Assembly: GCA_934183165.1 (NCBI GenBank)
Contig: CAKPRZ010000001.1
Span: forward strand, 119,833-183,832
From: an uncultured Bacilli bacterium
GTDB lineage: Bacteria > Bacillota_I > Bacilli_A > RF39 > UBA660
Reading direction: 5' to 3'
DNA: 64,000 nucleotides
Shown: positions 19,842 to 43,544 of the stretch, piece after piece
Layout: every line of letters starts with the position of its first letter
Numbering within the stretch: the stretch's first letter is position 1
The notes under the pieces: generated by a model
What the model saw: the letters and a program-made list of their open reading frames with translations, nothing else
The model's database searches: none
What the model was told of the DNA's origin: nothing
Position numbers and translations under genes: made by a program

Positions 19842-19856
19842 AAGGGAGGTTTTGAT

Positions 19857-23266: not shown

Positions 23267-25702
23267 TTACTGTTGTGGCATATCATTTGATGGTGTACCA
23301 AAACTACAATTCATCTTATTTCTAGAACAGAATTCCGTAATATTGATATCTTGGTTAACATCTTGGCCTCTAGCATTAGAAATATTGAAGTGTAAATGCC
23401 ATCCCGTTGAATTACCAGTACTTCCCATATATCCTAAGAATTGTCCTATCTGAACTTTATCGCCATTTTTAAGCTTAGGATCAATTGCATCAAAATGCCA
23501 ATATGAGAATGTATATCCTTTATATGGATCAGAATTATCAGTAACTTTTATTACAACTGCCATACCATTACATCCTGATACTCTTCTTAATGTTGTATCG
23601 GCATTACTATGTCTAGTATCAGAGCAATAATACTTAGATCTATCATTTTGAAGTAAAGTAATTGTACCACTATGGGCAGCAACAATTGGTATTTTAGTAC
23701 ATTTTTCACGACCACCGCCTGAACAAGCAATATCTAAAGATCCATGATATCCAGTGAAGTAATAGTATCCACCTGTAACTGTTAAATTACTAAGTGGAGT
23801 ATTCAATGGCAAAATACTAGTTGAATATATTCCTTTAGTACCTAATTGGATTCCACCAGCTACGCCTAGACCCATTTGAGTAATTTGAACACCATCACTA
23901 TAGAAGAATTTAAGTATTTCATCATACTTTTTACCTTGCTTTGCCATTTGATAAGATACTAACTGACTCATACCATTAGCATGTCCTTGACCAGTAGTAA
24001 TTCTACTATATTGAGATGAATCACTTAATGTTACTTTATGAGTTTCTCCTTTTGGCAATTTTTTATAAGTTACACTATAAGTACCATCAGCATTTCTTGT
24101 AGCATCAGGACAATCTGAATCTGCATAACAAAAAGAGTCATATTGAGCAGAAAAGTATTTGCCATTATAAGTTAAAACCATTCCCGCTGTTTCATTAGCT
24201 GCTTTTAAAGATAATGGAGCTTGTTTTTTTACATACTCAATATCATGAAATGTTTGAGCATTTGTACTGTTTTCTATAGGCTTAGTACATCCAGCAGTAT
24301 AATTAAGAGCATATGTTCTAGCCGCAATAGCTTGAGCTTTTAAAGCTTCTAATCCACCATCTTGGTATGCTTCATGAGCTACAACACCAGCAACATACTC
24401 CTCTAAATCCATAGTACCAACACCAGTTACAGTAATACCATTAGGACACAAGTTAGAAATTATTCCTCCATTTAGAGAATCAGCCTTTAAGTCTTTGTAA
24501 TACAAATAAATAAAACTGATTATTTCCTCTTTTTTATCTGCTAATTTATCACCGCTTAATCCTTCTATATATTCTTTATAATAATCTTTTACAAAGTCTT
24601 TATATAACCATTGAAAAAATTTACTTCCAGTATTTTCAGGATCATTATAATTTCCTTCTGTTACATCATTCCCGCTATCAGAAATAGCATTATTTACTTT
24701 TTTTATGTATTTTCTAACTTTTGACTTTGACAGTTTAGCAATACCATTTTTATCTACATCTTCAAAACAATCACCATTTTCTTGATCCTCATCACTACAT
24801 GTATCAGTTGATTCGGAATCGTCTTTTGAATAATCATCATTGTCATTTTTATACCCAACTAAAACAGCAACAACCATTTCTTTATCGGTAGTAACCATAC
24901 TATTTATCTTATTATAGAAATATTTATATTCTTCACCTACTGCTTCTTCACCTTGAGCACTACCAAATGCCTCACCCTTAAAGAAACTCATACTATCAGT
25001 AAATTTAGAAATAACACTAATAGATATCATTGATATAGTAAAAAATGTAACCAGTACAGGTATAAGATAAATAATAAGTTTTTTCTTAACCGTACTAGAA
25101 ATTACAATTTCTACAAGCTTTTTTGTTCCTGCAGACAAAGCAGATATGGGATTTGACGCCGCACGAGCAGCCTCAACCGCTGGCTTTCCTTTTGAAGTAT
25201 CAAGCATTTTTTCTGCCACTTCACCAGCACCAGGAGCAGCAGCATTAACTGCTGCCTTAACTCCTTTTTTAAATGCCATCTCATTCAATTTTGCTTTTTT
25301 CTCTTCTACAACTCTTTTTGGAGCATTTACTTTATCCTGAATAGCTTTCTTTTTTGCTTGTAATTGTTGTTGTTTTTTCTTTACTGATTCAGGGACCATT
25401 TTATTGGCAGCATTTTTAATACCCGCCTTTGCTTTATCTTTTGTTGCGCCTATTTTTTCATTTACTTTATTTGAAATAGCATCTTTTGCTACTCCACCTA
25501 ATCCATTTGCTTTATAACTATTTATAAAGTTATTAGCTTTAGCTGCGTTAGATAATAATCTTGAACCTAATCCTTGCTTTTTTTCAGAAGAATTATCCTT
25601 TACTGAATCAATATCATCTGAATTATATGGATTTAAATTAGTATCACTTTGAGGAACATCTTGTTCTAATTCCTTGTTTTGATCATTCAAGATTATCACC
25701 AC
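23267..25702 (-). CDS. Conjugation-type cell-wall hydrolase: Lys/Ala-rich cytoplasmic N-terminus, TM, SpoIID/LytB-like domain, C-terminal M23 peptidase (VirB1/PrgK/TcpG analogue)
   Basis: VAHEAYQDGGLEALKAQAIAARTYAL (SpoIID/LytB block). M23 motifs: SLDIACSGG...(HxxxD region) and GSTGNSTGWHLHF. Probable GTG start. Confidence 0.75.
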   Translation of the reverse strand: MVIILNDQNKELEQDVPQSDTNLNPYNSDDIDSVKDNSSEKKQGLGSRLLSNAAKANNFINSYKANGLGGVAKDAISNKVNEKIGATKDKAKAGIKNAANKMVPESVKKKQQQLQAKKKAIQDKVNAPKRVVEEKKAKLNEMAFKKGVKAAVNAAAPGAGEVAEKMLDTSKGKPAVEAARAASNPISALSAGTKKLVEIVISSTVKKKLIIYLIPVLVTFFTISMISISVISKFTDSMSFFKGEAFGSAQGEEAVGEEYKYFYNKINSMVTTDKEMVVAVLVGYKNDNDDYSKDDSESTDTCSDEDQENGDCFEDVDKNGIAKLSKSKVRKYIKKVNNAISDSGNDVTEGNYNDPENTGSKFFQWLYKDFVKDYYKEYIEGLSGDKLADKKEEIISFIYLYYKDLKADSLNGGIISNLCPNGITVTGVGTMDLEEYVAGVVAHEAYQDGGLEALKAQAIAARTYALNYTAGCTKPIENSTNAQTFHDIEYVKKQAPLSLKAANETAGMVLTYNGKYFSAQYDSFCYADSDCPDATRNADGTYSVTYKKLPKGETHKVTLSDSSQYSRITTGQGHANGMSQLVSYQMAKQGKKYDEILKFFYSDGVQITQMGLGVAGGIQLGTKGIYSTSILPLNTPLSNLTVTGGYYYFTGYHGSLDIACSGGGREKCTKIPIVAAHSGTITLLQNDRSKYYCSDTRHSNADTTLRRVSGCNGMAVVIKVTDNSDPYKGYTFSYWHFDAIDPKLKNGDKVQIGQFLGYMGSTGNSTGWHLHFNISNARGQDVNQDINITEFCSRNKMNCSFGTPSNDMPQQ

Positions 25703-25719: not shown

Positions 25720-27513
25720 TTATAGACCTCCACCTTCACCAAATGAAGATAATTCTTCAGGAGTAACTACAACATTAATTCTCATTCTACGATTACCACA
25801 TACAAACAATGCTTCACCTTGAGAATACTGTTTTATACTTTCTTTTTCATTATCATTTAAATCGATTAACATAGCCAAGTCCTCTACAGCTTGTTTCTTT
25901 AATCCCATTACTAGGTAGTAAGAAGCATTATCAAATATTGCTTTGCCTTGCATTAATACATCTGGTGCTGCAAAGTCACTAGGTTGCTGTGTAATAATTA
26001 TTGACCCTGTATTATATTTACGCGCACGTCTTTGTACTTGAGCTAAGAAATCAGCTCCAAGTGAATTATGTTCACCAAGTAAAACATGTGCTTCATCAAC
26101 CATTAATACAGTATCAACATCTCTATCAAGACATAATCCCCAAGCATATTTTAATATATTAAAGAATAATGCATTCTTAACATTTGATTCCGCATTCATA
26201 AGCTCTTTTATATTAAATACTATAAAATCACTTTCATGAGAAATCGTTGTATGTCCATCGAAATAATATTTTAATTCTTTTGTTAATGGTCTTACTTTTA
26301 ATTCAAGTTTTTCTAATATATCTCTTTCATGTGTATGCTCTGGCATAGAAACCAAGATTGCTTTTATCGTTTCATATACATCAGAAAATGTTGGATAGTC
26401 ATTCGGACCAAAATCATAGAAATTGGTATTAAAGTCCACTCCAAATCTTTTGTATGTATCTTGTACGATTTCACTAAACAACGTTAAAACATCTTCTTCT
26501 ATTGATGGATCATAATATTTCATAAAAGCCTTTAAAAATTGTAAAGCACGAGTTAAAACAGTATAACCAAGTCCTTGTTTTATTTCTTCTTCATCAGCAT
26601 CTATTACAATTTGAAGTGGATTTATCATACCGTATTCTCCACCCTTACCTAAGTCAATTGTATCTCCACCAAAAGATCTAGCCATTTCACCAATTTCATC
26701 TTCTGGATCTATTGCTACTATCTGACAACCATTTCTTATATGTCCACGAAGTAATAACTTAGCTGCTGTTGATTTACCAGAACCAGACGTACCTAAAAGA
26801 ATCATATTAGCGTTATTTCTGTTATTTTCTTTTTTGATTTTATATAAAAATTGATTAAATAAAATTACACCACCTGAGAAGTCAACTCCTAAAAGTGTTG
26901 AAAGTCCAGGATCTTTAATACTATCAAAAATAAATGGATACATGGCACCTAACGTAACTGAAGGAATTGGAGTACCAATTCTATCTTCAATATCTTGTTT
27001 AGGGAATATTGGAAGAATTGATTTTAAAACTTTTTCTTGTTCAAATCTAAGAGAAACTGCTCTCAATTCCATTGCATCTAAGTAATTCTTAACATTTACT
27101 TTTTTCATTTCTAATTCTTCCTTAGTATCAGCAACAATCATTATATGCATTTGAAAATCAAATATTTTTGATTGACTTGATGCTAACATAGAAACAAAAT
27201 ATTCAAGTGATTCATAGTCAACTCTTATTCTTTCTTGAATAGTCCTATCTTTTTCATTTTGATAATTTACTTTTAATTCAGCAATTTGTTTATTAAGCAT
27301 TTTAGCAAGTGTTGAAAAAGGAACAGGAATATGTTTAATAACAACTTTTATTCCTGGCATAGTTGTAAGTGTTGATAAATAACCAGGAGAGATAAATTTA
27401 GGATATGATACAACTGTTAAAAGAGTTGCATATTTATCACTAATAAAGAAATCACTAGGATTGAAGTGTAATCCTTTAGGAGCAATTTGAGATTTAAATT
27501 TCATTGTACTCAT
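25720..27513 (-). CDS. virB4: VirB4/TrbE/CagE-family conjugative ATPase (C-terminal two-thirds)
   Basis: Walker A LLGTSGSGKST. VirB4-typical DEAH-like block LMVDEAHVLL. C-terminal RRARKYNTGSIIITQQPSD. Its ATG overlaps the stop of the upstream ORF (ATGA). Confidence 0.85.
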   Translation of the reverse strand: MSTMKFKSQIAPKGLHFNPSDFFISDKYATLLTVVSYPKFISPGYLSTLTTMPGIKVVIKHIPVPFSTLAKMLNKQIAELKVNYQNEKDRTIQERIRVDYESLEYFVSMLASSQSKIFDFQMHIMIVADTKEELEMKKVNVKNYLDAMELRAVSLRFEQEKVLKSILPIFPKQDIEDRIGTPIPSVTLGAMYPFIFDSIKDPGLSTLLGVDFSGGVILFNQFLYKIKKENNRNNANMILLGTSGSGKSTAAKLLLRGHIRNGCQIVAIDPEDEIGEMARSFGGDTIDLGKGGEYGMINPLQIVIDADEEEIKQGLGYTVLTRALQFLKAFMKYYDPSIEEDVLTLFSEIVQDTYKRFGVDFNTNFYDFGPNDYPTFSDVYETIKAILVSMPEHTHERDILEKLELKVRPLTKELKYYFDGHTTISHESDFIVFNIKELMNAESNVKNALFFNILKYAWGLCLDRDVDTVLMVDEAHVLLGEHNSLGADFLAQVQRRARKYNTGSIIITQQPSDFAAPDVLMQGKAIFDNASYYLVMGLKKQAVEDLAMLIDLNDNEKESIKQYSQGEALFVCGNRRMRINVVVTPEELSSFGEGGGL

Positions 27514-28058
27514 AGAGCCACCACCGTTCCAAATTCAGTTGTTGAACCACCATTTAAGAAGTTATCTAATATAACTCTTAAATCATCATTAGTTGTTTGA
27601 CTAGCAACTAATCCACAACCAGATAATCCATTAATTAATAATCTTACTTTTTTCTGCATTATTTCAGGATTTTTTTCTTTAAATAAGATGTAATATTCTG
27701 TATCAACAACATTGTTATTCATGAAGCTATTACCTTTATTTATATCTTCCATTACTAGCTTTCTAATTGCATTTGATTGACTTTGGTTATATAAAAGTTG
27801 TAATTGTGATAGATAAACAGTAATATCTACTGGTCTATCCGCACATATTAACCAAAATTCGAAATCAAGCTGATTATAAAAGTTTTTTAATCCTGTCAAA
27901 ACATTTGCTTGCGATTGTTCATCTAATATGAATATATTACGAGGCATTATTTTAACGCCTGTAACATTCAACTTATTTTCTAGAATAATAACTCCATTAT
28001 TAATTGCTTTAACTGGAACCCAATCTTCTGTATATTTACTACTCATCGTCTTTGCCAT
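27510..28058 (-). CDS. VirB4 N-terminal-domain-like protein (separate ORF, translationally coupled to virB4)
   Basis: 182 aa. The sequence VKAINNGVIILENKLNVTGVKIMPRNIFILDEQSQANVLTGLKNFYNQLDFEFWLI resembles VirB4/TraC N-terminal regions. Stop/start overlap TCAT/ATGA with the next ORF. The 182 + 597 aa total approximates a full-length VirB4. Confidence 0.45.
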   Translation of the reverse strand: MAKTMSSKYTEDWVPVKAINNGVIILENKLNVTGVKIMPRNIFILDEQSQANVLTGLKNFYNQLDFEFWLICADRPVDITVYLSQLQLLYNQSQSNAIRKLVMEDINKGNSFMNNNVVDTEYYILFKEKNPEIMQKKVRLLINGLSGCGLVASQTTNDDLRVILDNFLNGGSTTEFGTVVAL

Positions 28059-28362: not shown

Positions 28363-28379
28363 CTATTATCACACTCCAA

Positions 28380-30335
28380 TTATTTTCCTCTTTTGATAGC
28401 ATCTTTATTAGCTTTGTATCTTCTAGCTTTATCAGGACTAACCTTAGCTCTAACAGTAGCTCCTTGTTTTGTAAGATTATCAGAATGAGCTTTAGTAACA
28501 TCACTTGCATTTGCAACAACTGCAATCGAATTTCCGTCAGAAACAGCATCCATATTGGTTCTGTAATCCTCAAAAGCAGCATCAATTGTAGCATTACTGC
28601 CCAAGCTATAAGTTGATAAATATGTATCAGAAACAGCATCAGAAAGGGATTTATATATTGAACCGGCTGTAGTCATATCATAACTACTACCATTAAAACT
28701 AACAGTGGTTAAACCATTGCGAGCAGCATTTTCATATGCATCCTTAAACAAAGCATGTTGACCATTGCTAAAGCCCATTACATGTGATGCACCAGTGCTA
28801 TCTTTATAACCAACATTTCCGACATTCAAACTACGATTAATAAAGCCTTTATCCCTTGCTGTATCTCTAATGGTTTTCAAATTACCAGCTGCTGCGTTCA
28901 AGTTTTTTGCATCCTCTAAATCTCTATCAACACCACTTTGTATACCAAGCATATCTTGGCCACGTGCACCCATACGACCCAACCAAGTTGAACCAGCAGA
29001 AGCAGCAGTAACTTTTCGCTGATTTATAGCTGATTGAGACTGCATAGCACCTCCAATGCCTTTAAATGGATTGCCTTTTGCAGCTCCTTTTGCACCTTGA
29101 GCTGTTCCTCTAAATGCACCAGCAACACCACCACCAAGGCCTTTCATTGCACCCATAAATCCATTTTGACCAGCAGCCTTTGCTGAAGCAATACCACCAG
29201 CAACACCACCAGCAAAGCCAGTTACACCACCAGCAATTGCACCAGTAGCTGCTCCAAGTGCTTTCAAACCACCAAAGATTCCTCCACCACCAGAGTCCTT
29301 AATACCCATAGCGTCTTTTATAAACTTTGGTGCATCTTTAGCAAACTTAAACAAACCAATTGTTAAAAATATTATTAAGAAGCTTCTAGTCATAAAACTA
29401 GTATGAGCTTTTATCTGTGTCCCAAAAATACCATTCTCAGTAAATAAATTACCTATTAGTAGCATCAATAGATAAACCGTACCAACTTTTATAAAAACGT
29501 CTAAATACGTAGAAATATACATTTTTAACCAAGATGAGAATGCGCCATCCTTAGATGCTTTTGGATCTATATATGACATTATAGGAATTGGAGCTATCAT
29601 CTGCAACACCATAATTTTAAACACCCTTACTGCGACGTCAATAGCTATTCCTAATAAAATCACTACTAACATAATTCCAGCAACAGTGGTCAATGGCCAC
29701 ATATATTTATAATCAAATTTGCCAGAATCATTAATATTTATAGAATTTTCAAAAGTATCAAAATCAGAAATGGCTGCTTTTAATCCCGTTTCACAATTAG
29801 ATTTACTACTTTCACAATCAGTCTTATAATATAGGCTTCCCAGCATCATAAGTGCTATAGATTCACCATCACTACCACTATTCTTATTGACTTCATTACT
29901 ATCCACACCCAACACAACTTGTGGTAAGGTTTTTAATACACCTCTTTGTAAAACATTTAATAATGTTCCTTTACTACCACCCGGAACTGTTATTTCCTCA
30001 AAGAACAATATTGGTACAAAAATAATTAGTACTAGCATAACAATAGTTCTAGAGATTAATTTACCAACTCCCTTTTCTTTATCAGTCATAGCATCAGGAT
30101 TAACGATGTATTGAATAAATGAAAAAGTAAGTTTAAACACCATAAATATGGCTAATACAACATAAATTCTTCTATATATAGTATTTACGAAGGTTGGATT
30201 AGCAAACAAATCAGATAAATTCAAAATTCCTTCTAATGTCCATCCAATTAGTTTATAAATAACAGCATCTATAGCTGCAAAAAAAGGTCTTATAAGCTTA
30301 TTAAACCAATTTACGCTATCGAAAGTAAAAATCAT
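28380..30335 (-). CDS. VirB6/TrbL-like polytopic T4SS channel protein with a Gly-rich segment and a C-terminal soluble domain
   Basis: At least six TM helices in the first 330 aa. Gly/Ala-rich stretch GGGGIFGGLKALGAATGAIAGGVTGFAGGVAGGIASAKAAG, as in TrbL. About 230-aa hydrophilic C-terminus. Confidence 0.55.
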   Translation of the reverse strand: MIFTFDSVNWFNKLIRPFFAAIDAVIYKLIGWTLEGILNLSDLFANPTFVNTIYRRIYVVLAIFMVFKLTFSFIQYIVNPDAMTDKEKGVGKLISRTIVMLVLIIFVPILFFEEITVPGGSKGTLLNVLQRGVLKTLPQVVLGVDSNEVNKNSGSDGESIALMMLGSLYYKTDCESSKSNCETGLKAAISDFDTFENSININDSGKFDYKYMWPLTTVAGIMLVVILLGIAIDVAVRVFKIMVLQMIAPIPIMSYIDPKASKDGAFSSWLKMYISTYLDVFIKVGTVYLLMLLIGNLFTENGIFGTQIKAHTSFMTRSFLIIFLTIGLFKFAKDAPKFIKDAMGIKDSGGGGIFGGLKALGAATGAIAGGVTGFAGGVAGGIASAKAAGQNGFMGAMKGLGGGVAGAFRGTAQGAKGAAKGNPFKGIGGAMQSQSAINQRKVTAASAGSTWLGRMGARGQDMLGIQSGVDRDLEDAKNLNAAAGNLKTIRDTARDKGFINRSLNVGNVGYKDSTGASHVMGFSNGQHALFKDAYENAARNGLTTVSFNGSSYDMTTAGSIYKSLSDAVSDTYLSTYSLGSNATIDAAFEDYRTNMDAVSDGNSIAVVANASDVTKAHSDNLTKQGATVRAKVSPDKARRYKANKDAIKRGK

Positions 30336-31603
30336 TTAATTACCTCCTCGCAATTAGAAGCATTTTTATCAAAATAACTAGAATCAATCCAGTTAATCAT
30401 TACGCTAACTAAAAGAGGTATAAAGAATAATGCAACAGCAGCAACTGCACGCTTAATTGCTTTAGATGTTGCTTTTTTCATAGCATCTTGATCTTGTGAA
30501 ATAACAGCTTGTCCAAAGTCTACAGACATTAATATAATCAATAATATAGGTGCACCTATTCTTACCCATTTTAAGACAAGTTGAATTACTGCTTTTAAAT
30601 CTTCATCTATTAAGTGACCACAATTAATAACAGTTGTCCCAGGATTATAAGCAGTAATAGTTGCTGATTTTGTAATATTCTTATAAAGATTTTTGGCACT
30701 TGTAGCATTTCTTGTAGCTTCCTTTTTTTGTTCCTTTGTTAATTCAGTAGATGTATTTACAATTTGTTGATAATGATTAAGTGCTTCATTTAATTGATTA
30801 AGTTTCTGTTGTGTTTTTTCATTATTATTATCGACTAAAAAAGCACAATACTTAGGATAATTTTGGTCTCCTATTTTTGTATAGTAATTACTTGCAATAG
30901 TATTATACATAGCATTGATTTTTGCTATTTCTATTGCTGCTGATGTACCATTAACATTGTTTTTTTTAGACAATTGATCTATACTAGTATTAATTTTTTT
31001 TGAAATATCCTTATTATTAGAATCCTTAACAGTATATCTTAATTCAAAATTACCATTATTTACTACGTTTAATAAATTAGAACCTCCAGCAGAGCATGAT
31101 TTTAATGTTTTATCATCACCAATTTCTAAGGGAGTATATATTTTTGCTTTATATTTATTATCAGACATTTTTACACTTGCATCAGAAACATTAAAATAGA
31201 CTTCCCCGTCTGCTCTATGATTTGTAGCTACTGAAAAAGTAGAATTGTTATCCCTATTTAAGTAAAGCTTAGAAGGACAATAAAATGTTTTTACACTACT
31301 ATCATAAACAGTTAAAGAAGAAGGCGAATCATGACATTCACCCCTAGTGAAAGGCATGTTTATAGCATCCGAATGTAAATATCCTAAAGAACATGCCGCA
31401 ACAGCCTCACCATTATCATAAAGCCATAACGATAACACTTTACCATTATCATACTGATATATTTCCCACTTTGTATCAGACATAGGAATAGCAGTTTTAT
31501 ATACACACTCACCCACTTTAGTTTTAGCAAACACCTCTTTATTAAAAGCTAAAAAGCTAACCATAAATACAAAAATCAACACCAAAGCTTTCTTTAATTT
31601 CAT
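30332..31603 (-). CDS. Secreted protein with C-terminal two-TM VirB2/pilin-like membrane domain (paralogous to 32915..33277)
   Basis: Signal peptide (AFNKEVFA), about 330-aa extracytoplasmic region. C-terminus: LKWVRIGAPILLIILMSVDFGQAVISQDQDAMKKATSKAIKRAVAAVALFFIPLLVSVMINW, which aligns with the 120-aa ORF. Confidence 0.55.
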   Translation of the reverse strand: MKLKKALVLIFVFMVSFLAFNKEVFAKTKVGECVYKTAIPMSDTKWEIYQYDNGKVLSLWLYDNGEAVAACSLGYLHSDAINMPFTRGECHDSPSSLTVYDSSVKTFYCPSKLYLNRDNNSTFSVATNHRADGEVYFNVSDASVKMSDNKYKAKIYTPLEIGDDKTLKSCSAGGSNLLNVVNNGNFELRYTVKDSNNKDISKKINTSIDQLSKKNNVNGTSAAIEIAKINAMYNTIASNYYTKIGDQNYPKYCAFLVDNNNEKTQQKLNQLNEALNHYQQIVNTSTELTKEQKKEATRNATSAKNLYKNITKSATITAYNPGTTVINCGHLIDEDLKAVIQLVLKWVRIGAPILLIILMSVDFGQAVISQDQDAMKKATSKAIKRAVAAVALFFIPLLVSVMINWIDSSYFDKNASNCEEVIK

Positions 31604-31652
31604 AAAAAACCTCTCCCAACTATTTATCTACTAATATCAGTATAACATAAAA

Positions 31653-31686
31653 ATAACAATAGAAAAAGTAATTTCTATTGTTATTT
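31653..31686 (-). terminator. Intra-cluster hairpin (possible attenuator or partial terminator)
   Basis: aataacaatagaaa-aagtaa-tttctattgttatt, then a T-rich tract on the minus strand, lying between the 32823..31696 gene and the 31603 gene. Confidence 0.35.
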
Positions 31687-31695
31687 TATGTTTTA

Positions 31696-32823
31696 TTATT
31701 TAATTAAATATGGATCAGTTTCAGTACCAGTTCCACCAGCAAATATTACATTCTTGTTAAGATTAGTAACTAGTCTAGCTGTTTTTAAACTTGATAATTT
31801 TGATGATGTAGAATTATTATAAATACCATAACCTATATAACTTTTTTCTGATGAAGTTGTTAATAACCAAAAACTTCTATTATACTTTAATAAATAATTA
31901 TAATTACTACAATTATAACTATCCAACCTTTTACAATTAGTATCTAAACTTGCATTAATAAAATCATATACAGTCAACAAACTAAGAGGTTCATTTTGCA
32001 ATATATTTCTACATTCTACACTGCCATCGTTCTTTGTCTCACTTAATTTTCTACTTCCAACGCAAATATCTTTAAAAACTATTTTTTCTTTTACTATATC
32101 AGAAAGTGTACTTGAATTATAATAGTCAGAAATATTTCTTCTAATAATACTCTTATAATAATCATTTATACCAGCATTTTCATTCTTAGTATTATTATAT
32201 CTATCATCCCAAACACTACTTAATCTAGTCTTTTTGTCATTTTCTTGTATAATTTCTAAACTGTAATCACTATTAATTTTTACTATACGCCACAAAAATT
32301 CATCTAATTTTATAAAATTATTAACATAATCTCCTCTAAATACATAAACAGTTTCTTTCCCTTTAGTTTTAGTCGAGTATTGTTCTTTTTTATATAAGCC
32401 ATCATCCTTTGATACTACCTTACTGATTAATTCTTCATACAAATAAGTAGTAGTATATTTATCACCACAATTTAAATATGGTGAATAATTGTAATAATCT
32501 CCCGATTTAGTAACAATTACTTTACCACTACATGCTACATTCTTATCTTTCTGGTATTTGGATAAATCTTTAATATAACCTTCTTCTTTTAATAAAGAAG
32601 CATCAACCTCAACTTCATCATTATCATTAAGTGGCAATGCATCTTTTTTGTTTGCATAATATTTTCTTGCACCAGAAACCAATTTAGATTCTATTTCTGA
32701 ATAACTTAATGAACTGTTTTTAATCATTCCAACAATCAATACTATTATAACTATCAATATAATTGCACCAATACCAATTCCAAAACTTATAAGCATTTTT
32801 TTTGCTTTTTCATCAATCTGCAT
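31696..32823 (-). CDS. Bitopic T4SS-associated protein (N-terminal TM, about 340-aa external domain); candidate VirB8/TcpC-position component
   Basis: The start moves to the ATG at 32823, 6 nt after GGAGG (MQIDEK...). Single TM ISFGIGIGAIILIVIIVLIVGMI. No recognisable catalytic motif. C-terminal GGTGTETDPYLIK. Confidence 0.4.
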   Translation of the reverse strand: MQIDEKAKKMLISFGIGIGAIILIVIIVLIVGMIKNSSLSYSEIESKLVSGARKYYANKKDALPLNDNDEVEVDASLLKEEGYIKDLSKYQKDKNVACSGKVIVTKSGDYYNYSPYLNCGDKYTTTYLYEELISKVVSKDDGLYKKEQYSTKTKGKETVYVFRGDYVNNFIKLDEFLWRIVKINSDYSLEIIQENDKKTRLSSVWDDRYNNTKNENAGINDYYKSIIRRNISDYYNSSTLSDIVKEKIVFKDICVGSRKLSETKNDGSVECRNILQNEPLSLLTVYDFINASLDTNCKRLDSYNCSNYNYLLKYNRSFWLLTTSSEKSYIGYGIYNNSTSSKLSSLKTARLVTNLNKNVIFAGGTGTETDPYLIK

Positions 32824-32914
32824 GTTAACCTCCATAATTATTATCAATAATTATATGATATCTCAAGTTTTATGTTTAATCAAGAAATATTAAAAAAAAA
32901 AGACTAATGAAATT

Positions 32915-33277
32915 TTATGAGTCCTCATTAGCATCATTCCAACAAGCAAGCCAGTTGTTGTTACCTCTTTCTTGTCCTTCACCAGCTTCCGCGTTAGAAT
33001 CACCTGTTTTACCAAGCCAACTGAATACGACAGTAACAAGAGTAGTAACAAAGAATACAGCTACTGCCATAATTGCTCTTTTAATTAATTTACCTGTTGC
33101 TCCTTTAATTTCTTTATCATCTTGTGACATAACAGCTTTACCTAAGTCAATAGTTCCAAACAAAATCAAAAGAATTGGAATACCTATTTGAATTACAGGA
33201 AAAACACCTTTTCTTATAAACTTAACTACTGGTAAAAGCCCCCCACAGTTATCCATAATTTGAAATAAATCTAACAT
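32915..33277 (-). CDS. Small two-TM VirB2/TrbC-like (pilin-topology) T4SS protein
   Basis: 120 aa with two helices separated by a short loop: GIPILLILFGTIDLGKAVMSQDDKEIKGATGKLIKRAIMAVAVFFVTTLVTVVFSWL. Homologous to the C-terminus of 30332..31603. RBS GGAGGAA. Confidence 0.45.
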   Translation of the reverse strand: MLDLFQIMDNCGGLLPVVKFIRKGVFPVIQIGIPILLILFGTIDLGKAVMSQDDKEIKGATGKLIKRAIMAVAVFFVTTLVTVVFSWLGKTGDSNAEAGEGQERGNNNWLACWNDANEDS

Positions 33278-33347
33278 TTTTAATTCCTCCTAAATCTACA
33301 ATAAATATATCAATATTTAACATTAATGTCAATATTTATTGAGTACA

Positions 33348-34310
33348 TTATTTTCTCCTAACAAGACCTAATCTTGCTAAAAGGTTTATTATGCTATCTT
33401 GTCTACTACGATCATCAAAAGGTGGTATAACATCAAATAATCTTGAACCACATTCTTTTTCAAATTCTCTAATATCACTTTTAGTTAAACAACATTTATT
33501 CAAAACAATCTTTTTTCCAGCTATTCTTGAAAAAATCATCCTGTTTTTCATCATAAGTTTATTCATCTTTATTAATGATGGTTCAACTAAATATAATACA
33601 TCAGTACATAAATCTGGTTCAGCATCATTCAAATCAACTAATACTACCTGTGAATTTATTTTTAATAATAAACCAGATAATCCAGTTTTATTAGTTGATA
33701 GCATTTCTTTATCATTAAAGTATAAAAAATCTTTTTTATTAACTTCAACTGCAGTTGCACTTATTTTCTGATTATTAACAAGTTCTTTATACAACATATA
33801 AGTAAGTGTTGTAGCACCTGCTCCTTCAGTAACATTTTTTATACCTATTACTATTTTCATTTGTCCAGAATTACCTGTATTACTTGGTGCATTGCCTTGC
33901 ATTACCGGTACTACTGGAGGTGGTGCAGCATCTATTTGATGAAGATGTGCAACATCTTTATATGAATTAGGGTGTTGTAGTAAATATAAAACTCCTTCCG
34001 AGTTAGTAGTAAAGTTATAAAATCCCATTGAGATTAATTTAGATAAAAAATAACTACTAGCCACCTCTGTTGAGGAAGGAATAATTAATATTATTTTATC
34101 AACAGGTAATCCAATTGATAATTTTTGATAAGTTAAAATATTAGTATAGTCTTTTAATGCTGTAACATCGATAATCATGCGTGAAAAAAAGAAGTTAGAA
34201 AAATTAGCTATAATCTGTTCAACATCAAATTCACCATGAATAGATTTTATAACTTCAACATTTAAACTATTGGTAATATTATCCTGTTGATTAGATATTA
34301 TAACATTCAT
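33348..34310 (-). CDS. TadZ/CpaE-like protein: N-terminal pseudo-receiver-like domain plus MinD/ParA-fold domain with a degenerate Walker A
   Basis: The C-terminal domain begins KIVIGIKNVTEGAGATTLTYML in place of the deviant Walker A KGGxGKTT, so the P-loop lysine is lost. Compare the canonical TSMKGGVGKTTT in the locus-2 homolog at 52638..53429. Confidence 0.5.
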   Translation of the reverse strand: MNVIISNQQDNITNSLNVEVIKSIHGEFDVEQIIANFSNFFFSRMIIDVTALKDYTNILTYQKLSIGLPVDKIILIIPSSTEVASSYFLSKLISMGFYNFTTNSEGVLYLLQHPNSYKDVAHLHQIDAAPPPVVPVMQGNAPSNTGNSGQMKIVIGIKNVTEGAGATTLTYMLYKELVNNQKISATAVEVNKKDFLYFNDKEMLSTNKTGLSGLLLKINSQVVLVDLNDAEPDLCTDVLYLVEPSLIKMNKLMMKNRMIFSRIAGKKIVLNKCCLTKSDIREFEKECGSRLFDVIPPFDDRSRQDSIINLLARLGLVRRK

Positions 34311-34334
34311 TTTCTTCCCTCTTTCTTCTTTTTA

Positions 34335-34811
34335 TTAAGGTGCTACTGCACCACCAACTAATACATTAGAATAAGTGTCCTCGCCACTATATCCATTATT
34401 GCAGTTTGCTATTCCAAGACCTCCAAGATCTTTTACATAGTTTCCCGTTTCAATCGTTTTTGTCTCGCCACTAACAGGAATTTTAGGGTTAAATGCTTTA
34501 CCAAATATATTTCTATCCATTTGCATATAAACAATAACTTTTACAGTGAACCCGATTCGTTCACTACCTCTATAAACCTCTTTGTAGCAAGCTTTGATAT
34601 CTCTTCCACTATATACGCTGCCCTTACCGACCATGTAATTAGCAAGTGTGTCTTTATCTACGCCCTCATTCTGTTCGATATAATTAATCATATCATTTTT
34701 TAATCTAAAAGTTTGCCCATAGCTTATGAAAAAGGCTACCATAATAATAAATATTAATATTATTCCGGCAGCTAAACCCATAAGTAAGGCTCCACCCGTG
34801 GCCTCTTTCAT
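34335..34811 (-). CDS. Pilin-like / TadE-TadF-like pseudopilin with MKEATGG leader
   Basis: N-terminus MKEATGGALLMGLAAGIILIFIIMVAFFI (short polar leader plus hydrophobic helix), 158 aa. Shares its first 6 residues with the adjacent 61-aa pilin candidate. Confidence 0.45.
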   Translation of the reverse strand: MKEATGGALLMGLAAGIILIFIIMVAFFISYGQTFRLKNDMINYIEQNEGVDKDTLANYMVGKGSVYSGRDIKACYKEVYRGSERIGFTVKVIVYMQMDRNIFGKAFNPKIPVSGETKTIETGNYVKDLGGLGIANCNNGYSGEDTYSNVLVGGAVAP

Positions 34812-34826
34812 CTTATCACCTTTTAA

Positions 34827-35012
34827 TTACTTAATTAAACTATAATCAATATATGTAGTACTTCCAATATTTCTAACTTCAATATTATTAACTTCTTTTT
34901 GAATTTTGTTGTTAATTAAAGGCCATATAACTGTTGTTCCTAAAGCTAAAACAGCTATAATACCTACAATAACAACGATAGTCATTGTCATATCTCCAGT
35001 CGCTTCTTTCAT
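34827..35012 (-). CDS. Flp-type major pilin candidate (61 aa)
   Basis: MKEATGDMTMTIVVIVGIIAVLALGTT..: pilin size and topology, strong RBS AAGGGAGAG, preceded by a 120-nt intergenic region. Confidence 0.45.
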   Translation of the reverse strand: MKEATGDMTMTIVVIVGIIAVLALGTTVIWPLINNKIQKEVNNIEVRNIGSTTYIDYSLIK

Positions 35013-35133
35013 AAAATATTACTCTCCCTTCTACTATTACATTATTATTATAACCAAATTTTTTTTATTTTACAATAGTTTTGTGTTAACTTTACACTAT
35101 TAAAAAAGTGAACATTACAGTCCACATTAATAA

Positions 35134-35922
35134 TTAAAAACTAAACATAAATAACATTGAGAACATAAGTACAAGTAACATACCTCCACCAGTTACAACT
35201 AGCATTATCATAGTTCTTCTTTCCATCCAATCAAGTCTGGATTTATACTTAACTTCTCTTGCTTTATTTTGAAGTGATGAAACTGATTTAGAAAAAAGTA
35301 CTAATTGTTGATGTTTATTCTCTTGTGCTCCTAAACTAAGTCTATATAAAAGTCTCATCATACGCATTGAATCTTTTACTGGATATTCAATAGCAAAATC
35401 CATATATGGTTGAATTGATGAATCACCTGCATCTATTTTAGCAACCATCTCTCTTAACCCTTTTTTAAATATTTCTGGAGCTTCTTCAATAGATCTTGAT
35501 AACGCTACTGGAACAGTATAATTTTGACAAAGAATTTCAAGTCCCTTTAAATAATATGGTAACATTTGATCTACTTTTTGCATCTCTTGTTTATAATATT
35601 TTTTTAAGGAAAAATATGGAATTTTATATACTATAAAAGTACCACCTAATATTTTTAAAATACTCCATACACTCATATTAGTTATATAAAATAATGTCAT
35701 TAAAAGAAGAACATATCCTGAAAGTCTTATTCTTTTACTATATAAAATATTAGGATCAGCATCAGATCCATATTTAGCATTAACTAAGAAATTATAATCT
35801 TTTTCTCTTAAATAGTTAACACTTGAGTCACTTGATATAATAAATTTTTGTAATGTTGTTTTATTATTATAAACAACTATAAATAATATTAAACCTAATA
35901 CAATAAAAATTTCTATATTCAT
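35134..35922 (-). CDS. tadC: TadC-like inner-membrane platform protein (GspF/T2SSF family)
   Basis: Polytopic 262-aa protein; start overlaps the stop of the upstream TadB-like gene; position and size as in tad loci. Confidence 0.55.
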   Translation of the reverse strand: MNIEIFIVLGLILFIVVYNNKTTLQKFIISSDSSVNYLREKDYNFLVNAKYGSDADPNILYSKRIRLSGYVLLLMTLFYITNMSVWSILKILGGTFIVYKIPYFSLKKYYKQEMQKVDQMLPYYLKGLEILCQNYTVPVALSRSIEEAPEIFKKGLREMVAKIDAGDSSIQPYMDFAIEYPVKDSMRMMRLLYRLSLGAQENKHQQLVLFSKSVSSLQNKAREVKYKSRLDWMERRTMIMLVVTGGGMLLVLMFSMLFMFSF

Positions 35923-36815
35923 TATTCAGCCCCCACATTCTCATTATAATATTTTTCACCAGAAAGTAAGAAATATGAATTAATCCATAATAATGCATGA
36001 AGGGCAACCTTTACAATTATATTATCCTGAATTTCAATATATTTATCAACTCCCAAGATTCCTTGAATAAGTACAACCATAAAATATAAAACTAATCCAA
36101 AGGTAATAAATTTACTATGGAAATTTTTTCTATCAATTCTATCCGCATATACTCCTTCAACTAATTGGTCAATATCAAGTAACATATTTTCTAATATATC
36201 ATTCGAATCTCTAGAACCTTCTTTAGTTATCTGTAAAAATAATTGATGCATATTTTTAGACATATAAAAGTCATATTTTGAGTTCATATAATTAATTGAT
36301 TCATGGACATCCCCATTTTGATACGCTAAATCTATCATCATTTTAACATCTGATTTAACAGGATCTTCTAATACTCCAGAATTATATACTCCTTCTAATG
36401 CTTTTACAAAACTTTGAGTAATTTGAAATTCCATAATAGTATTAGTTGTATATGTCTGAATCTGTTCAAATATAAATTCACTATATAGTCTTTTACATCT
36501 TAAATATGACAAATATGGAATTAATATAAATACAAACAAGCAATATACTATTGAAACAACAATGTTATAGAAATATAAATAAGTAATTAAGAATGTACCA
36601 CCTATAAATATTATAAATTGTATTAAATATTCTTTAGGTGTCATCTCCATTCCCATATCTTTTATTTTCTTACGCATCATTTTAAATGAATATGGTGCAT
36701 ATTTTTCATATAGATTAGTACCAGTATTATTGATAAATTTATAGAATTTTTCACCACTTCTTAAATAGTTAACAACTATAAAAAGTAATATTGCACCTAC
36801 TATTAAGTACTCCAT
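35922..36815 (-). CDS. tadB: TadB-like inner-membrane platform protein (GspF/T2SSF family)
   Basis: Polytopic 297-aa protein immediately downstream of the CpaF-like ATPase. Confidence 0.55.
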   Translation of the reverse strand: MEYLIVGAILLFIVVNYLRSGEKFYKFINNTGTNLYEKYAPYSFKMMRKKIKDMGMEMTPKEYLIQFIIFIGGTFLITYLYFYNIVVSIVYCLFVFILIPYLSYLRCKRLYSEFIFEQIQTYTTNTIMEFQITQSFVKALEGVYNSGVLEDPVKSDVKMMIDLAYQNGDVHESINYMNSKYDFYMSKNMHQLFLQITKEGSRDSNDILENMLLDIDQLVEGVYADRIDRKNFHSKFITFGLVLYFMVVLIQGILGVDKYIEIQDNIIVKVALHALLWINSYFLLSGEKYYNENVGAE

Positions 36816-36832
36816 ACTTCACCTTCTTTCAA

Positions 36833-38107
36833 TTATTCACCAGATCTTAATTTATCCATATCTACTCCTTGACCTTCTAGGTATTCAAGTAAATATTTAC
36901 TTACAGGATTATATGTTTCAACTCCTGAAATAGTTTTTTTATAAATAGTGTTAGATCCAATTTCATTATTTTCATCTACATAAAATTCAGTAACTTCTGC
37001 AACTTCTCTTACGAAACGTTTTTCACTAGGAGAATATCTACCTCTTACCATAACTCCTAATTGAACATATCTATATATTGTTTTTAAGAATTGTTCAACA
37101 TCAATATTAGATTCAAGTAAGCTATACATACGATGAGGTATACTTACAGCTTTATCAGCATGAATTGTTGATAAAATATTATGTCCTGAAGAAATTGAGT
37201 TACGAACAGCAGTAACAGCTTCAGCACTACGAACTTCTGATAGTAATATCCATTTTGGATTTTGTCTCATACAAGTAACCAAAACATCAGAGTATGATGC
37301 GATATTATTTGTTTTCATAGCTACAATATCACGTTCAGGAAATATTCTATCTAAGTGAAGTTCTAGTGTATCTTCTATTGTAATTATTTTTTCATTATAA
37401 GCAGTATGACTAGCTAAATATTTAACAAGTTCTGTTTTACCACTACCAGTCTCTCCACAGACAATGATATTACAATGTCCTTCTACTGCATGAATTAAGA
37501 AATTATGAATATCTAGATTGATATATTTTTCTCTTAAGATTTTATCTTTTTCTAGTCTTATTTTAGCTGGTGTTTTACGGAAAACTGCCGCTACTCCATT
37601 TCTAGCAATCGAGTGATGAACAAAGTTCATACGAAGTTCAGCGCTTTCTGAGTCAAGGAATGGATGAGCAGTATTAAATGACTTACCCATTATGTTTGAA
37701 CATTGAAAAGCTATTTTTTCAATTAAAGCATTATTAACTCCTGGTTCATCAACTCTAAAAACTCCTCTATCAAGAGTTTTCAACCATAACTGTCCACCAT
37801 TACTATAAGAAATATCTGTAACATTATCGTCATCTAAATATTTCTTTAATGGTCCAAAGTCCATACTTGAGAATATTGCTTCTTCTTCAATTCTCTCATC
37901 AGCATTTAGATTAATTTCTTTTTTTATGTCTGTATTATTAGTAGTATTTACTTGCTGAGGTGTTGGTTGAACTTGTTGTACTGGTGTTCCAGCATTTGTA
38001 TTAGTTACATTTTGTTGTGTAGGTACTTGCTGTGTTGTTGTGTTATTTACTACATTATTATTAGTCGTACCATACCCCATTCCATTTAAGTTCATCTCTG
38101 GATCCAT
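36833..38107 (-). CDS. tadA: CpaF/TadA-family secretion ATPase (VirB11/GspE superfamily) with an N/Q/T-rich N-terminal extension
   Basis: Walker A GETGSGKT. Asp box IITIEDTLEL. His box and Walker B regions in the usual GspE-family order. First about 60 aa are low-complexity (NNVVNNTTTQQVPTQQNV...). Confidence 0.85.
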   Translation of the reverse strand: MDPEMNLNGMGYGTTNNNVVNNTTTQQVPTQQNVTNTNAGTPVQQVQPTPQQVNTTNNTDIKKEINLNADERIEEEAIFSSMDFGPLKKYLDDDNVTDISYSNGGQLWLKTLDRGVFRVDEPGVNNALIEKIAFQCSNIMGKSFNTAHPFLDSESAELRMNFVHHSIARNGVAAVFRKTPAKIRLEKDKILREKYINLDIHNFLIHAVEGHCNIIVCGETGSGKTELVKYLASHTAYNEKIITIEDTLELHLDRIFPERDIVAMKTNNIASYSDVLVTCMRQNPKWILLSEVRSAEAVTAVRNSISSGHNILSTIHADKAVSIPHRMYSLLESNIDVEQFLKTIYRYVQLGVMVRGRYSPSEKRFVREVAEVTEFYVDENNEIGSNTIYKKTISGVETYNPVSKYLLEYLEGQGVDMDKLRSGE

Positions 38108-38116
38108 AATATCCCT

Positions 38117-38980
38117 CTATTCTTCATTTAATTTTGAATTTTTTTCTATTTCATTTATATCGATATCTTTAGTTTTGTCTTCAATATAATTTTGTAACTG
38201 TTCACTTGTAATAGTAGCAACTACTTTTTCACCATCTTCAGATTCATATTTTTGTCCTCTTGGAACAATAATAAATTCTATTTCAGCTACTCCACTTAAT
38301 TTTGAGAAGTATTCAGCTTTTTTCATAAGTAAAGCTTGTTCTTCTGGTACAGAGAATAATACACTAGCAGGTTCTCTTGTTTCATCTGAACCAAATACGT
38401 TTTTTCCATCAGCAGTTTTAACAGCTAATATTTTAATTTTATTAATTAATTTACCAACAATAATTTCATTATCTGTTTTCTTATTGTTAGAATCTTCTGG
38501 TAATACACCAACTGTTCTAACATATAAATCAAAGTAATCACCTGGCACTAAAGAGTTATAATAACTTGTTGCCATATTTACTTTTAAATATAATAATGTT
38601 TCTCCATCTGGTATATCAAGTAGAGCTGATGTTGGTAGGTTATCTTTTGTTGTTATCGCATTCTTATAGAAGAAGCTTCCAGAGTATATAGTTGACTCTA
38701 ATTTAGCATACTTACCTATTACATCTGCTGATTGTGTAAATATAACATCTTTATTTACTGCATCTGCAGCTATTGTCATAGTACCTACCATTTCTGAAGT
38801 TATTTTTGTTTGTGGACTTATAGTTTGTTTTGCATAAACTACTTTTACTGGACTAGTAGCAGCATTGATTCTAAAATTATAGAAAATAACTAATATAACT
38901 CCTATTAAAATAAATGCAAGTGCTGTTACAAAGTTTTTGTTACTAAAAGCTTTTTTTAGTTTCATCGAAAAATTATTCAT
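38117..38980 (-). CDS. cpaB: CpaB/RcpC-like Flp pilus assembly protein
   Basis: N-terminal TM, then a SAF/beta-rich domain; size and position upstream of cpaF match tad loci. Confidence 0.5.
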   Translation of the reverse strand: MNNFSMKLKKAFSNKNFVTALAFILIGVILVIFYNFRINAATSPVKVVYAKQTISPQTKITSEMVGTMTIAADAVNKDVIFTQSADVIGKYAKLESTIYSGSFFYKNAITTKDNLPTSALLDIPDGETLLYLKVNMATSYYNSLVPGDYFDLYVRTVGVLPEDSNNKKTDNEIIVGKLINKIKILAVKTADGKNVFGSDETREPASVLFSVPEEQALLMKKAEYFSKLSGVAEIEFIIVPRGQKYESEDGEKVVATITSEQLQNYIEDKTKDIDINEIEKNSKLNEE

Positions 38981-39478: not shown

Positions 39479-39480
39479 AA

Positions 39481-42363: not shown

Positions 42364-42373
42364 ACGATCACCT

Positions 42374-43047: not shown

Positions 43048-43133
43048 ATTACAATATTATATTTACATGTAATACTTTTTTAATTATTGTATATTTTAAT
43101 TAAATGTGTTAGTATGTTTTAGAGGTGTTAGGT

Positions 43134-43544
43134 ATGAAAAATACAATTAAATTATTTGTTCTATTAAGCTTTGTAATGCTTATCACAGGATGTGGGATAA
43201 ATCCTATTAAATCAATTAGTTATAGTGATTTAGAAAAAAAATTAAATAATAAAGATACTTTTATATTAGAAGTAGTTCAAGATGGATGTCATAATTGTGA
43301 ATCATTTACTCCAAAATTTAAAAAAATATTAAATAAAAATAAAATTGATGCTTATTCAGTTAACTTAACAAGTTTATCTAAAGAAGACACTAATAAGATT
43401 GATAATCTTTATAAAGTTAGTGGTACTCCTACTGTTATTTTTATAACTAAAGGTGAAGAAAAATCAATTTCTCAAAGAATTGTTGGAGATCGTAGTGATG
43501 ATTTTATAATAGAAAAGTTAAAGATTGCTGGATATATTAAATAA
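43134..43544 (+). CDS. Thioredoxin-fold lipoprotein (extracytoplasmic thiol-disulfide oxidoreductase, CxxC = CHNC)
   Basis: Lipobox LITGCG; active-site-like DGCHNCESF; SGTPT cis-Pro region typical of the thioredoxin fold. The start moves to the ATG at 43134 (the ORF-track start is a GTG). Confidence 0.6.
   Translation: MKNTIKLFVLLSFVMLITGCGINPIKSISYSDLEKKLNNKDTFILEVVQDGCHNCESFTPKFKKILNKNKIDAYSVNLTSLSKEDTNKIDNLYKVSGTPTVIFITKGEEKSISQRIVGDRSDDFIIEKLKIAGYIK

Follow-up and report, generated by a model that had tools for sequence, protein, structure and literature searches.

Reviews up to December 2025 describe VirB2 and VirB5 as absent from Gram-positive type IV secretion systems (T4SSs), with the Patescibacteria as the sole exception (PMC12857230). 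In these monoderm bacteria arrays of VirB2-like pilins are known (PMC12102498, PMC12857230); PF18895 is one of two Pfam models that detect them, and whether they are native or co-opted was left open 'given their absence in MPF-FATA' (PMC12102498). The question of pili in monoderm T4SSs has been reopened only recently, by the Patescibacterial arrays (2023-25) and by a preprint of December 2025 that describes PrgF of the Enterococcus faecalis plasmid pCF10 as a VirB2-like pilin essential for conjugation (10.64898/2025.12.18.695078). Residues of the charged PrgF loop are needed for function, D37, D38 and R40 being essential, and labelling loop residues blocks transfer (10.64898/2025.12.18.695078). 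In the same work, 95% of 174 representative Gram-positive plasmids have a candidate gene beside virB6, candidates being chosen as small proteins with two transmembrane helices and a charged cytoplasmic loop encoded near virB6; the screen covered plasmids only and proteins of 50-150 amino acids (aa) only, the candidate pilins share almost no sequence homology with one another, and no VirB5-like tip was detected in pCF10 (10.64898/2025.12.18.695078). For AlphaFold models of pilus-like assemblies on pentameric VirB6 the preprint sets the bar at ipTM > 0.65 (10.64898/2025.12.18.695078). Here we analyse a stretch of 64,000 nucleotides (nt) from an uncultured Bacilli bacterium (contig CAKPRZ010000001.1 of assembly GCA_934183165.1, positions 119,833-183,832; hereafter the window) in which two genes share a pilin-like membrane hairpin, one coding for a stand-alone protein of 120 aa and the other for a 423-aa fusion with the hairpin at its C-terminus behind a large exported head. 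On balance, and with modest confidence, we read the 120-aa protein as the major VirB2-like pilin and the 423-aa protein as a head-bearing minor or tip pilin of a chromosomal T4SS in small-genome gut Bacilli. The pair had been picked out in a sequence-only reading, which placed both open reading frames (ORFs) and quoted their peptides correctly; its statement that Gram-positive T4SSs are not known to use a conjugative pilin has been outdated by the Patescibacterial systems (PMC12102498, PMC12857230) and the PrgF preprint (10.64898/2025.12.18.695078).

The evidence for a shared module begins with the two proteins themselves. Residues 327-419 of the 423-aa protein align with residues 10-100 of the 120-aa protein at 41/93 identities (44%, with 66% positives; BLASTP with composition-based statistics, E=1e-21). 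Hairpins of two transmembrane helices are biased in composition, which is what speaks for a chance resemblance of two hydrophobic segments; because the E-value is composition-corrected, however, hydrophobic composition cannot account for the similarity. Conservation within the module is highest in the polar loop, D-x-G-x-AV-x-S-Q-D ... K-x-AT-x-K-x-IKRA, and lower in the hydrophobic helices; the loop motifs and the cysteine positions are conserved, and a hidden Markov model (HMM) of the domain picks up both window genes (E=1e-38 and 2e-51). Chance can thus be dismissed as refuted. Judged by these alignments the two hairpins are homologous and hence the module is duplicated, so that the duplicated membrane domain of the sequence-only reading is borne out. 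Each hairpin is also bracketed on its outer flanks by a pair of cysteines, C11/C112 in the 120-aa protein and C328/C418 in the fusion, a feature that reading had not mentioned. The pair is kept in 115/120 members of the small family, in 30/30 fusion relatives and in 88/90 headed cluster representatives. A sequence search with the 120-aa protein returned 840 relatives. We also weighed a reading of its N-terminus (MLDLFQIMDNCGG) as a double-glycine leader and discarded it, because the fusion paralogues lack the GG and cleavage would lose the conserved cysteine.

Table 1. Features of the window that are discussed in the text (positions are those of the window)
Feature	Position	Strand	Remarks
VirD4 coupling protein, 739 aa, CD1115 family	20300..22519	-	PF02534 E=1.9e-59; NF045973 304 bits (cut-off 250)
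VirB1-type cell-wall hydrolase	23267..25702	-	SpoIID and M23 peptidase domains
VirB4 ATPase, 597 aa	25720..27513	-	AAA_10, P-loop_TraG, CagE_TrbE_VirB; VirB4_plasma 355 bits; CD1110 family 177 bits
TrsD-like protein, 182 aa, homologous to VirB4 N-terminal part	27510..28058	-	NCBIfam VirB4_plasma positions 100-276, E=1.7e-14
PrgI/VirB3-like small membrane protein, 107 aa	28039..28362	-	weak PF12666 PrgI match, E=0.031; position kept in 63/80 loci
VirB6-like polytopic membrane protein, 651 aa	28380..30335	-	NCBIfam conjugal transfer membrane families of Mycoplasma integrative and conjugative elements (ICEs), E=4e-9, 9e-7
Fusion protein, 423 aa	30332..31603	-	
Pilin-like hairpin of fusion, C-terminal, residues 328-423	30335..30622	-	Cys328, helices 334-369 and 372-408, Cys418
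Exported head of fusion, residues 27-327	30623..31525	-	AlphaFold2 model
Sec signal peptide of fusion, residues 1-26	31526..31603	-	MKLKKALVLIFVFMVSFLAFNKEVFA|KTK; predicted cleavage VFA|K; read from sequence
Accessory exported protein, transmembrane-anchored, 383 aa (375 aa in public gene calls)	31696..32847	-	between the two pilin genes
Small pilin-like protein, 120 aa	32915..33277	-	no signal peptide; candidate major VirB2-like subunit
Layout of the 120-aa protein			short N-tail with Cys11, helix 15-51, loop KAVMSQDDKEIKGATGKLIKRA, helix 54-93, acidic C-tail with Cys112
Near-consensus sigma-70-type promoter (predicted)	33304..33332	-	TTGACA-17-TG-TATATT, 11/12 matches; in the 70-nt gap from the TadZ-like gene to the small pilin
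Tad-like (type IVc) pilus genes	33348..38980	-	CpaB, TadA/VirB11-family ATPase, TadB, TadC, Flp-like (61 aa), TadE-like (158 aa), TadZ-like
Exported thioredoxin-fold lipoprotein	43125..43544	+	lipobox LITG|C, active site CHNC, PF20207 PedC-like; edge of Tad/T4SS locus

The surrounding genes place the pair in a T4SS locus (Table 1). Read along the minus strand, the Tad-like genes (CpaB, TadA/VirB11-family ATPase, TadB, TadC, Flp-like, TadE-like, TadZ-like) are followed by a predicted promoter, the small pilin, a 383-aa ORF, the fusion, VirB6, PrgI/VirB3, the TrsD-like protein and VirB4, and then by the SpoIID+M23 hydrolase, a lipoprotein and VirD4. The families nearest to VirB4 are those of Mycoplasma ICEs and CD1110, and by its gene families the locus is a Firmicute/Mollicute-type (MPF-FATA-like) T4SS. 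We scanned one genome per species and found relatives in at least 306 species genomes, from which 80 species-level loci were fetched; synteny is conserved across these 80. The fusion stop codon overlaps the virB6 start by 4 nt in the window, and the small gene lies 2.6 kb upstream of virB6 in the same operon. More generally, virB6 comes straight after the last pilin gene in 67/80 loci and lies within 30 nt of it, or overlaps it, in 62/69. The TrsD-like ORF, annotated as PF26593 TraC-like in public gene calls, overlaps the VirB4 ORF by 4 nt in the window and is separate in 62/80 loci; because the split is conserved in these 62, it is not a pseudogene. The 383-aa ORF has no match in the family scans, ends in a C-terminal motif, GTGTETDPYLIK, was detected in 11/80 related loci, and looks like an accessory gene inserted into the operon of the pilins. 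An ORF of 100 aa in another frame over virB6 (28337-28639) has no counterpart in any locus and was taken as spurious. The window is chromosomal, with FtsZ, FtsA, FtsK and a teichoic-acid synthase (TagF) 14-30 kb off. Neither a near-identity search with positions 27000-35000 nor a tblastn search with the small protein gave a match among PLSDB plasmids, which argues against a known plasmid system. A reading as an ICE was likewise rejected, since the ORFs scanned gave no relaxase, integrase or plasmid gene and no flanking tRNA was found; the sole tRNA, tRNA-Gly at 1058, is far off.

By component set the closest system is the Patescibacterial T4SS (Ca. Southlakia epibionticum, TM7x; PMC12102498, PMC12857230). 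Both have PF18895 matches, a monoderm host and an MPF-FATA type of machine made of VirB6, PrgI/VirB3, a separate TrsD-like VirB4 piece, VirB4 and VirD4. In both, the genes are chromosomal and have no relaxase in their vicinity, several divergent pilin paralogues adjoin one another, and the host has a reduced genome and a type IV-type pilus system. The TrsD-plus-VirB4 arrangement has been described for the pGO1 subclass and Patescibacteria (PMC12102498). Here, in contrast, the host is a gut Bacilli, one paralogue is headed, a cysteine bracket is present, the window proteins score below the Pfam cut-off, and the paralogues number two, occasionally three, where the Patescibacterial arrays have 2-11 pilins. 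pCF10 offers a second comparison, since its order prgF-prgG-prgH(B6)-prgI(B3)-prgJ(B4)-prgK(B1)...pcfC(D4) is collinear with the T4SS of the window and places the small pilin at the prgF position. PrgF too is small, has two transmembrane helices joined by a short charged loop in the cytoplasm, and is encoded shortly before virB6, and pCF10 has a VirD4 of the same CD1115 family and a VirB4 related to the CD1110 family. The 120-aa protein fits the description used for the plasmid candidates, with two helices, a loop charge of +2, neutral to acidic tails and a gene near virB6, whereas the 423-aa fusion fails the limit of 50-150 aa by construction; that size filter would leave head-fused forms outside the preprint's net. 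There are clear differences as well: PrgF has 75 aa, lacks the cysteine bracket and weakly resembles Maff2 and DUF4134 rather than PF18895, PrgG at the position of the fusion is a soluble-looking protein of 98 aa with no hairpin, and pCF10 is a plasmid with a relaxase, unlike the locus described here. Alignment of our domain with PrgG by hhalign showed no similarity. The PrgF loop GMSNDDPR (pCF10 19545-19772) and the consensus loop of the small pilins, AVMSNDDKEIK, both have MSNDD at an equivalent position; 41% of shuffles share some 5-mer, and we do not count this one as evidence. PrgF homologues on plasmids are nearly all from Enterococcus and at least 60% identical, too narrow a set for a deeper profile.

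The adjacency of the Tad-like genes raises the alternative that both proteins belong to the Tad/Flp system, as pseudopilins or as an adhesin displayed on its fibre. The small gene comes right after the TadZ-like gene, and Tad and T4SS genes are adjacent in most loci. What separates them is a conserved promoter: TTGACA-17-TG-TATATT is the best promoter-like site in 30000-35300, and a site scoring at least 10/12 stands upstream of the small pilin in 76/80 loci as against ~6% of control windows, with TTGACA almost invariant. The predicted promoter would start the T4SS transcription unit. One locus, L001, keeps the pair with virB6/B3/B4, and TadA, TadB and TadC were not found there. The genuine Tad pilins next door, the 61-aa Flp-like and the 158-aa TadE-like protein, have a MKEATG leader in common, whereas a prepilin-peptidase leader is missing from both proteins of the pair, and the second pilin gene is coupled to virB6. 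Because of the promoter in the gap, its recurrence, the arrangement in L001 and the missing leader, we assign the pair, on gene context and sequence, to the T4SS and not to the neighbouring Tad cluster; membership in the Tad system is hardly credible, and with it goes the suggestion, made from the sequence alone, of display on the Tad fibre next door.

The module and its fusions are widespread. The 80 fetched loci come from metagenome-assembled genomes assigned to uncultured 'Bacilli', 'Tenericutes' or 'Mycoplasmatota' that live in the gut of humans, rabbits, ruminants, mice and chickens, and include a closed chromosome of 1.31 Mb. NCBI places Candidatus Faecimonas in Bacilli incertae sedis, a group which we take to correspond to the GTDB order RF39. 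RF39 has been described as reduced and auxotrophic (PMC12306168). Nearly every locus codes for one small pilin (101-147 aa) together with one, sometimes two, proteins of 122-519 aa that carry the module at their extreme C-terminus, and the fusion noticed in the window thus recurs in other genomes. An exhaustive search with the domain profile returned 9,625 cluster representatives at E<=1e-3, 4,865 of them at E<=1e-10; none has a solved or named relative. Among 140 representatives analysed of the 150 best-scoring ones, 90 have heads of 77-455 aa, and of these 84 begin with a signal-peptide-like N-terminus and 84 end within 10 residues of the module. Most heads of the cluster representatives scanned gave no Pfam match; adhesin-type modules were found in two, Big_2 in one head and Listeria-Bacteroides repeats in another. 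A further architecture is seen in P0191 (272 aa), where a signal peptide is followed by two tandem pilin modules. Our literature search found no description of a head-fused VirB2-like protein, and the sequence-only reading still holds in calling a large head on this kind of hairpin unusual. We regard the head-fused paralogue as a new form; small VirB2-like pilins of the PF18895 type in monoderm T4SSs are of a known kind.

PF18895 (T4SS_pilin) is the only Pfam family that recurs in scans with the module, all others being one-offs. The fusion matches it over residues 336-401 (E=1.3e-4, 22.4 bits) and the small protein at 13 bits (E=0.11). Among relatives the signal is stronger: 18/28 domain sequences match at E<=0.01 (best E=3.3e-7) and 36/126 cluster representatives at E<=0.001 (best E=8.8e-8), and two relatives carry precomputed PF18895 annotations. 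One relative, P0026, scores 26.3 bits at E=8.2e-6; scaled from this value, the best relatives exceed the gathering cut-off of 26.6 bits. In the window and in the related loci the pilin genes lie close to virB4/virB6 of a T4SS of monoderm type. From these matches and this setting the pair is best described as a divergent branch of the PF18895-type VirB2-like T4SS pilins in a Bacilli host. PF04956, the VirB2 family, was absent from all family scans of the window proteins and their relatives, and both the domain profile and a full profile of the fusion family gave chance-level matches only against PDB sequences. It would be conceivable that the module is instead an unrelated small membrane protein of the holin, bacteriocin-immunity or toxin-anchor type, with heads that are polymorphic secreted effectors beside the T4SS by chance. 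The heads are indeed hypervariable and have no recognisable fold, a neighbouring thioredoxin is PedC-like and so of a family tied to bacteriocin maturation, and single members gave stray matches to a holin family and others. Yet no unrelated family was hit repeatedly, the position in the T4SS operon is strict across 80 species, a Pfam scan of cluster representatives found no toxin or immunity domains, and polymorphic toxins vary at the C-terminus rather than the N-terminus. We consider this explanation very improbable.

The predicted structure and charge of the hairpin agree with a VirB2-like pilin. In the AlphaFold2 model of the small protein, built on the family alignment, residues 15-51 and 54-93 form the two helices of a single long hairpin (core predicted local distance difference test, pLDDT, 82-89). 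Mean net charges over 117 family members are -0.3 for the N-tail, +2.0 for the loop and -2.5 for the C-tail; by the positive-inside rule these values would place the loop in the cytoplasm and both tails outside. The fusion leads to the same orientation independently of charge, since its Sec signal peptide and exported head would put the N-terminal side of the hairpin outside. The charge distribution of the module, as read from sequence, fits VirB2 topology. Some short relatives (P0195) have a classical signal peptide straight before the module, as in VirB2 propilins. VirB2, TrbC and TraA (PF04956; T-pilus, RP4 and F) likewise combine a two-helix hairpin, a basic loop and both termini outside with a gene at the front of the T4SS operon, near virB3/virB4/virB6; in VirB2/TrbC the termini are tied by cyclisation, and here they may be tied by a putative disulfide. 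They differ in that no sequence relationship is detectable, the small protein lacks a long cleaved leader, and the envelope here is monoderm.

The head of the fusion is the variable part of the system. It spans ~300 residues with six cysteines: a beta-rich hypervariable part (27-170) and a middle part are followed by helices 219-240, 260-284 and 290-314 and then by a flexible linker. The sequence-only reading called the protein secreted. Export holds, given the typical Sec signal peptide at its start, but free secretion does not, as the C-terminal hairpin would anchor the protein. AlphaFold2 models the head confidently (pLDDT 84-96 over residues 101-310); the model has no match in the PDB (Foldseek, template-modelling score (TM) ~0.1) and none among BFVD/viral folds. 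The signal peptide is 96-100% conserved in P0002-P0007, the six sequences closest to the fusion, and among its closest relatives the hairpin shows 90-99% identity. Head residues 27-170 are 36-46% identical in five of the six (P0003-P0007) and 76% in P0002. Across species, mean pairwise identity falls from 61% in the small pilin to 45% in the hairpin of headed pilins and 28% (median 20%) in the head. The strain of the window was found in Hadza gut metagenomes, where contigs with an identical small pilin carry 423- or 421-aa alleles of the fusion. Between co-occurring strains (~99% nt identity overall) the beta segment of the head is 91% identical at the nt level, whereas the small pilin, the remainder of the fusion and most core genes of the T4SS reach 99-100%; the sole other variable spot is the Flp-like pilin gene, at 86-88% nt identity. 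One would expect such a pattern if an exposed recognition surface were carried by an assembly module that stays constant.

How might the two proteins work together? We infer filament formation, a disulfide, a tip location and adhesion, as follows. The hairpin of the 120-aa pilin would insert into the membrane, its basic loop facing the cytoplasm and its two tails the exterior; we take this protein as the bulk subunit because it comes first behind a strong promoter, is highly conserved and has the size and topology of VirB2/PrgF. Oxidation of its flanking cysteines outside the cell would join the N- and C-tails by a disulfide, in place of the peptide bond by which VirB2/TrbC are closed head to tail. 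The pilin would then be extracted and polymerised on the VirB6 platform by VirB4 together with the TrsD-like protein, the loop lining the lumen. The 423-aa minor pilin would carry its Sec-exported, disulfide-rich head of ~300 residues while its hairpin fits the lattice of the major pilin; the head can ride outside because the N-terminus of VirB2-type filaments sits on the outer surface. Few copies would be accommodated because the head is bulky, and they may be produced in step with the pentameric platform because the gene is translationally coupled to virB6. These few copies could seed the first layer on VirB6 and so end at the distal tip, a plausible position, where the fusion would act as a partner-recognition adhesin, the role held by VirB5 in Gram-negative systems. 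With VirB5/TraC it would have in common the proposed few-copy tip role, a gene immediately upstream of virB6 and an exported, partly helical domain; VirB5/TraC, however, is a separate protein fold, whereas attachment here would be through a built-in pilin module, and the searches detected no resemblance to it in sequence or fold. In type IV pili, minor or tip pilins (initiators of the CofB/TcpB type) also join a lattice-fitting pilin module to a bulky domain that goes to the tip in an adhesive or initiator role. They belong to another fold and another machine, and their extra domain is C-terminal, whereas here the head is N-terminal.

Several observations weigh against this reading. Both window proteins fall below the PF18895 gathering cut-off, the hairpin of the fusion is modelled at low confidence (pLDDT ~50-64), and the small protein has no signal peptide, unlike the VirB2, TraA and TrbC propilins. 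When the domain alignment was compared by hhalign with an alignment of 28 genuine VirB2 sequences (PF04956) the probability was 0.2%, and with PrgF it was 0.25%; a Foldseek search with the hairpin model returned no solved conjugative pilin, bare helical hairpins being a poor Foldseek query. The VirB2/TrbC fold proposed from the sequence alone is supported in part: the predicted two-helix hairpin, the recurrence of PF18895 and the charge topology speak for it, and hhalign and Foldseek gave no direct demonstration. For the head, neither a VirB5-like nor any other fold was recognised, and a profile search of PDB sequences gave no match. On the question of a substrate, no relaxase or integrase family was found among the scanned ORFs of the 64-kb window, several of which have no assignment. 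Finally, a disulfide in the envelope of an anaerobe is an assumption.

The most serious alternative is that both proteins are resident membrane parts of the T4SS that form no filament: the hairpin would dock or anchor at VirB6, the small protein would be a channel subunit, and the fusion would be a T4SS-tethered surface adhesin or wall-spanning factor that stays in the membrane. The context evidence (synteny, architecture and coupling to virB6) fits this explanation equally, the missing similarity to solved pilins agrees with it, and an anchor of two C-terminal transmembrane helices would alone be enough to display a head. Gram-positive conjugative pili have, moreover, never been seen by electron microscopy, according to the authors of the PrgF preprint (10.64898/2025.12.18.695078). 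On the other hand, it is the loop that is most conserved and not the transmembrane helices, which fits a lumen lining or assembly interface and would be needless in a plain anchor; the cysteine bracket is conserved on the outer side, and the small protein has its own strong promoter, as for a bulk product. The PF18895 relatives in Patescibacteria and PrgF are, furthermore, read as pilus-forming, and the loop residues of PrgF become accessible to label only upon extrusion (10.64898/2025.12.18.695078). Taken together, we think a purely membrane-resident pair possible but rather unlikely, and retain a pilus of major and head-bearing subunits as the preferred reading.

Within the Tad part family matches were obtained for CpaB (RcpC) and the ATPase (T2SSE) only; TadB, TadC, the TadE-like, Flp-like and TadZ-like proteins were named from size, position and sequence reading, having no match at the thresholds used. 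The best scores of the 'TadA' ATPase (36833-38107, minus strand) are to VirB11, TrbB and 'TadA family conjugal transfer-associated ATPase' models, all below cut-off. The Flp-like gene (34827-35012, minus strand, in the window; 8260-8451 in L082-L084) is the most strain-variable gene of the locus. Going by the scores of the ATPase, the Tad-like cluster may have a functional link with the T4SS instead of forming an adhesion pilus of its own. The upstream end of the Tad cluster (38996-42994, minus strand) has genes for three further proteins: DUF5411 (167 aa), one of 960 aa without a family assignment, and one of 206 aa that is secreted, Cys-rich and anchored by a C-terminal transmembrane segment; DUF5411 is kept in 63/80 loci, and the other two were detected in few. 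The 960-aa gene is mildly variable, at 96-98% identity between strains that are ~99% identical. The thioredoxin-fold lipoprotein at the edge of the locus, homologues of which stand beside the locus in L001, L079, L067 and L071, is a candidate oxidase for the disulfides of the pilins and the head, and for the many conserved extracellular cysteines of these and of neighbouring secreted proteins. Just downstream of virD4, on the opposite strand, are two tandem ORFs like CotZ (spore coat protein Z; 19425-20270, plus strand). A second T2SSE-family ATPase (459 aa, 51281-52660) with adjacent ORFs of 103 and 124 aa belongs to a minus-strand cluster at 50256-54117 that is probably of the competence or type IV pilus type; if so, three pilus-type systems lie within 35 kb.

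For T4SS pili in monoderms, the large unannotated family described here would be a second solution, one that joins a pilin module, a signal peptide and a variable exported head in a gene coupled to virB6. If the fusion caps the pilus, it would supply the missing adhesin or tip, and its surface-exposed, strain-specific domain would provide a handle on what such machines touch. A further step, which we regard as improbable but far-reaching, is that the chromosomal, relaxase-less T4SS of these reduced-genome gut Bacilli (RF39-like) forms pili and is the same kind of machine as the one essential for Patescibacterial epibiosis, with the hypervariable head-bearing pilin as the tip that selects the partner cell. 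If true, these uncultured gut bacteria would depend on direct cell-to-cell contact with other bacteria through the T4SS, and PF18895 pilins would be native to a monoderm Bacilli/Mollicute T4SS lineage that is a possible source or sister of the Patescibacterial system. The pair extends PF18895-type pilins from the Patescibacteria to abundant uncultured gut Bacilli, and such pilins bear on the origin of the Patescibacterial T4SS, on whether its pilins are native or co-opted, and on the lifestyle of gut bacteria with reduced genomes.

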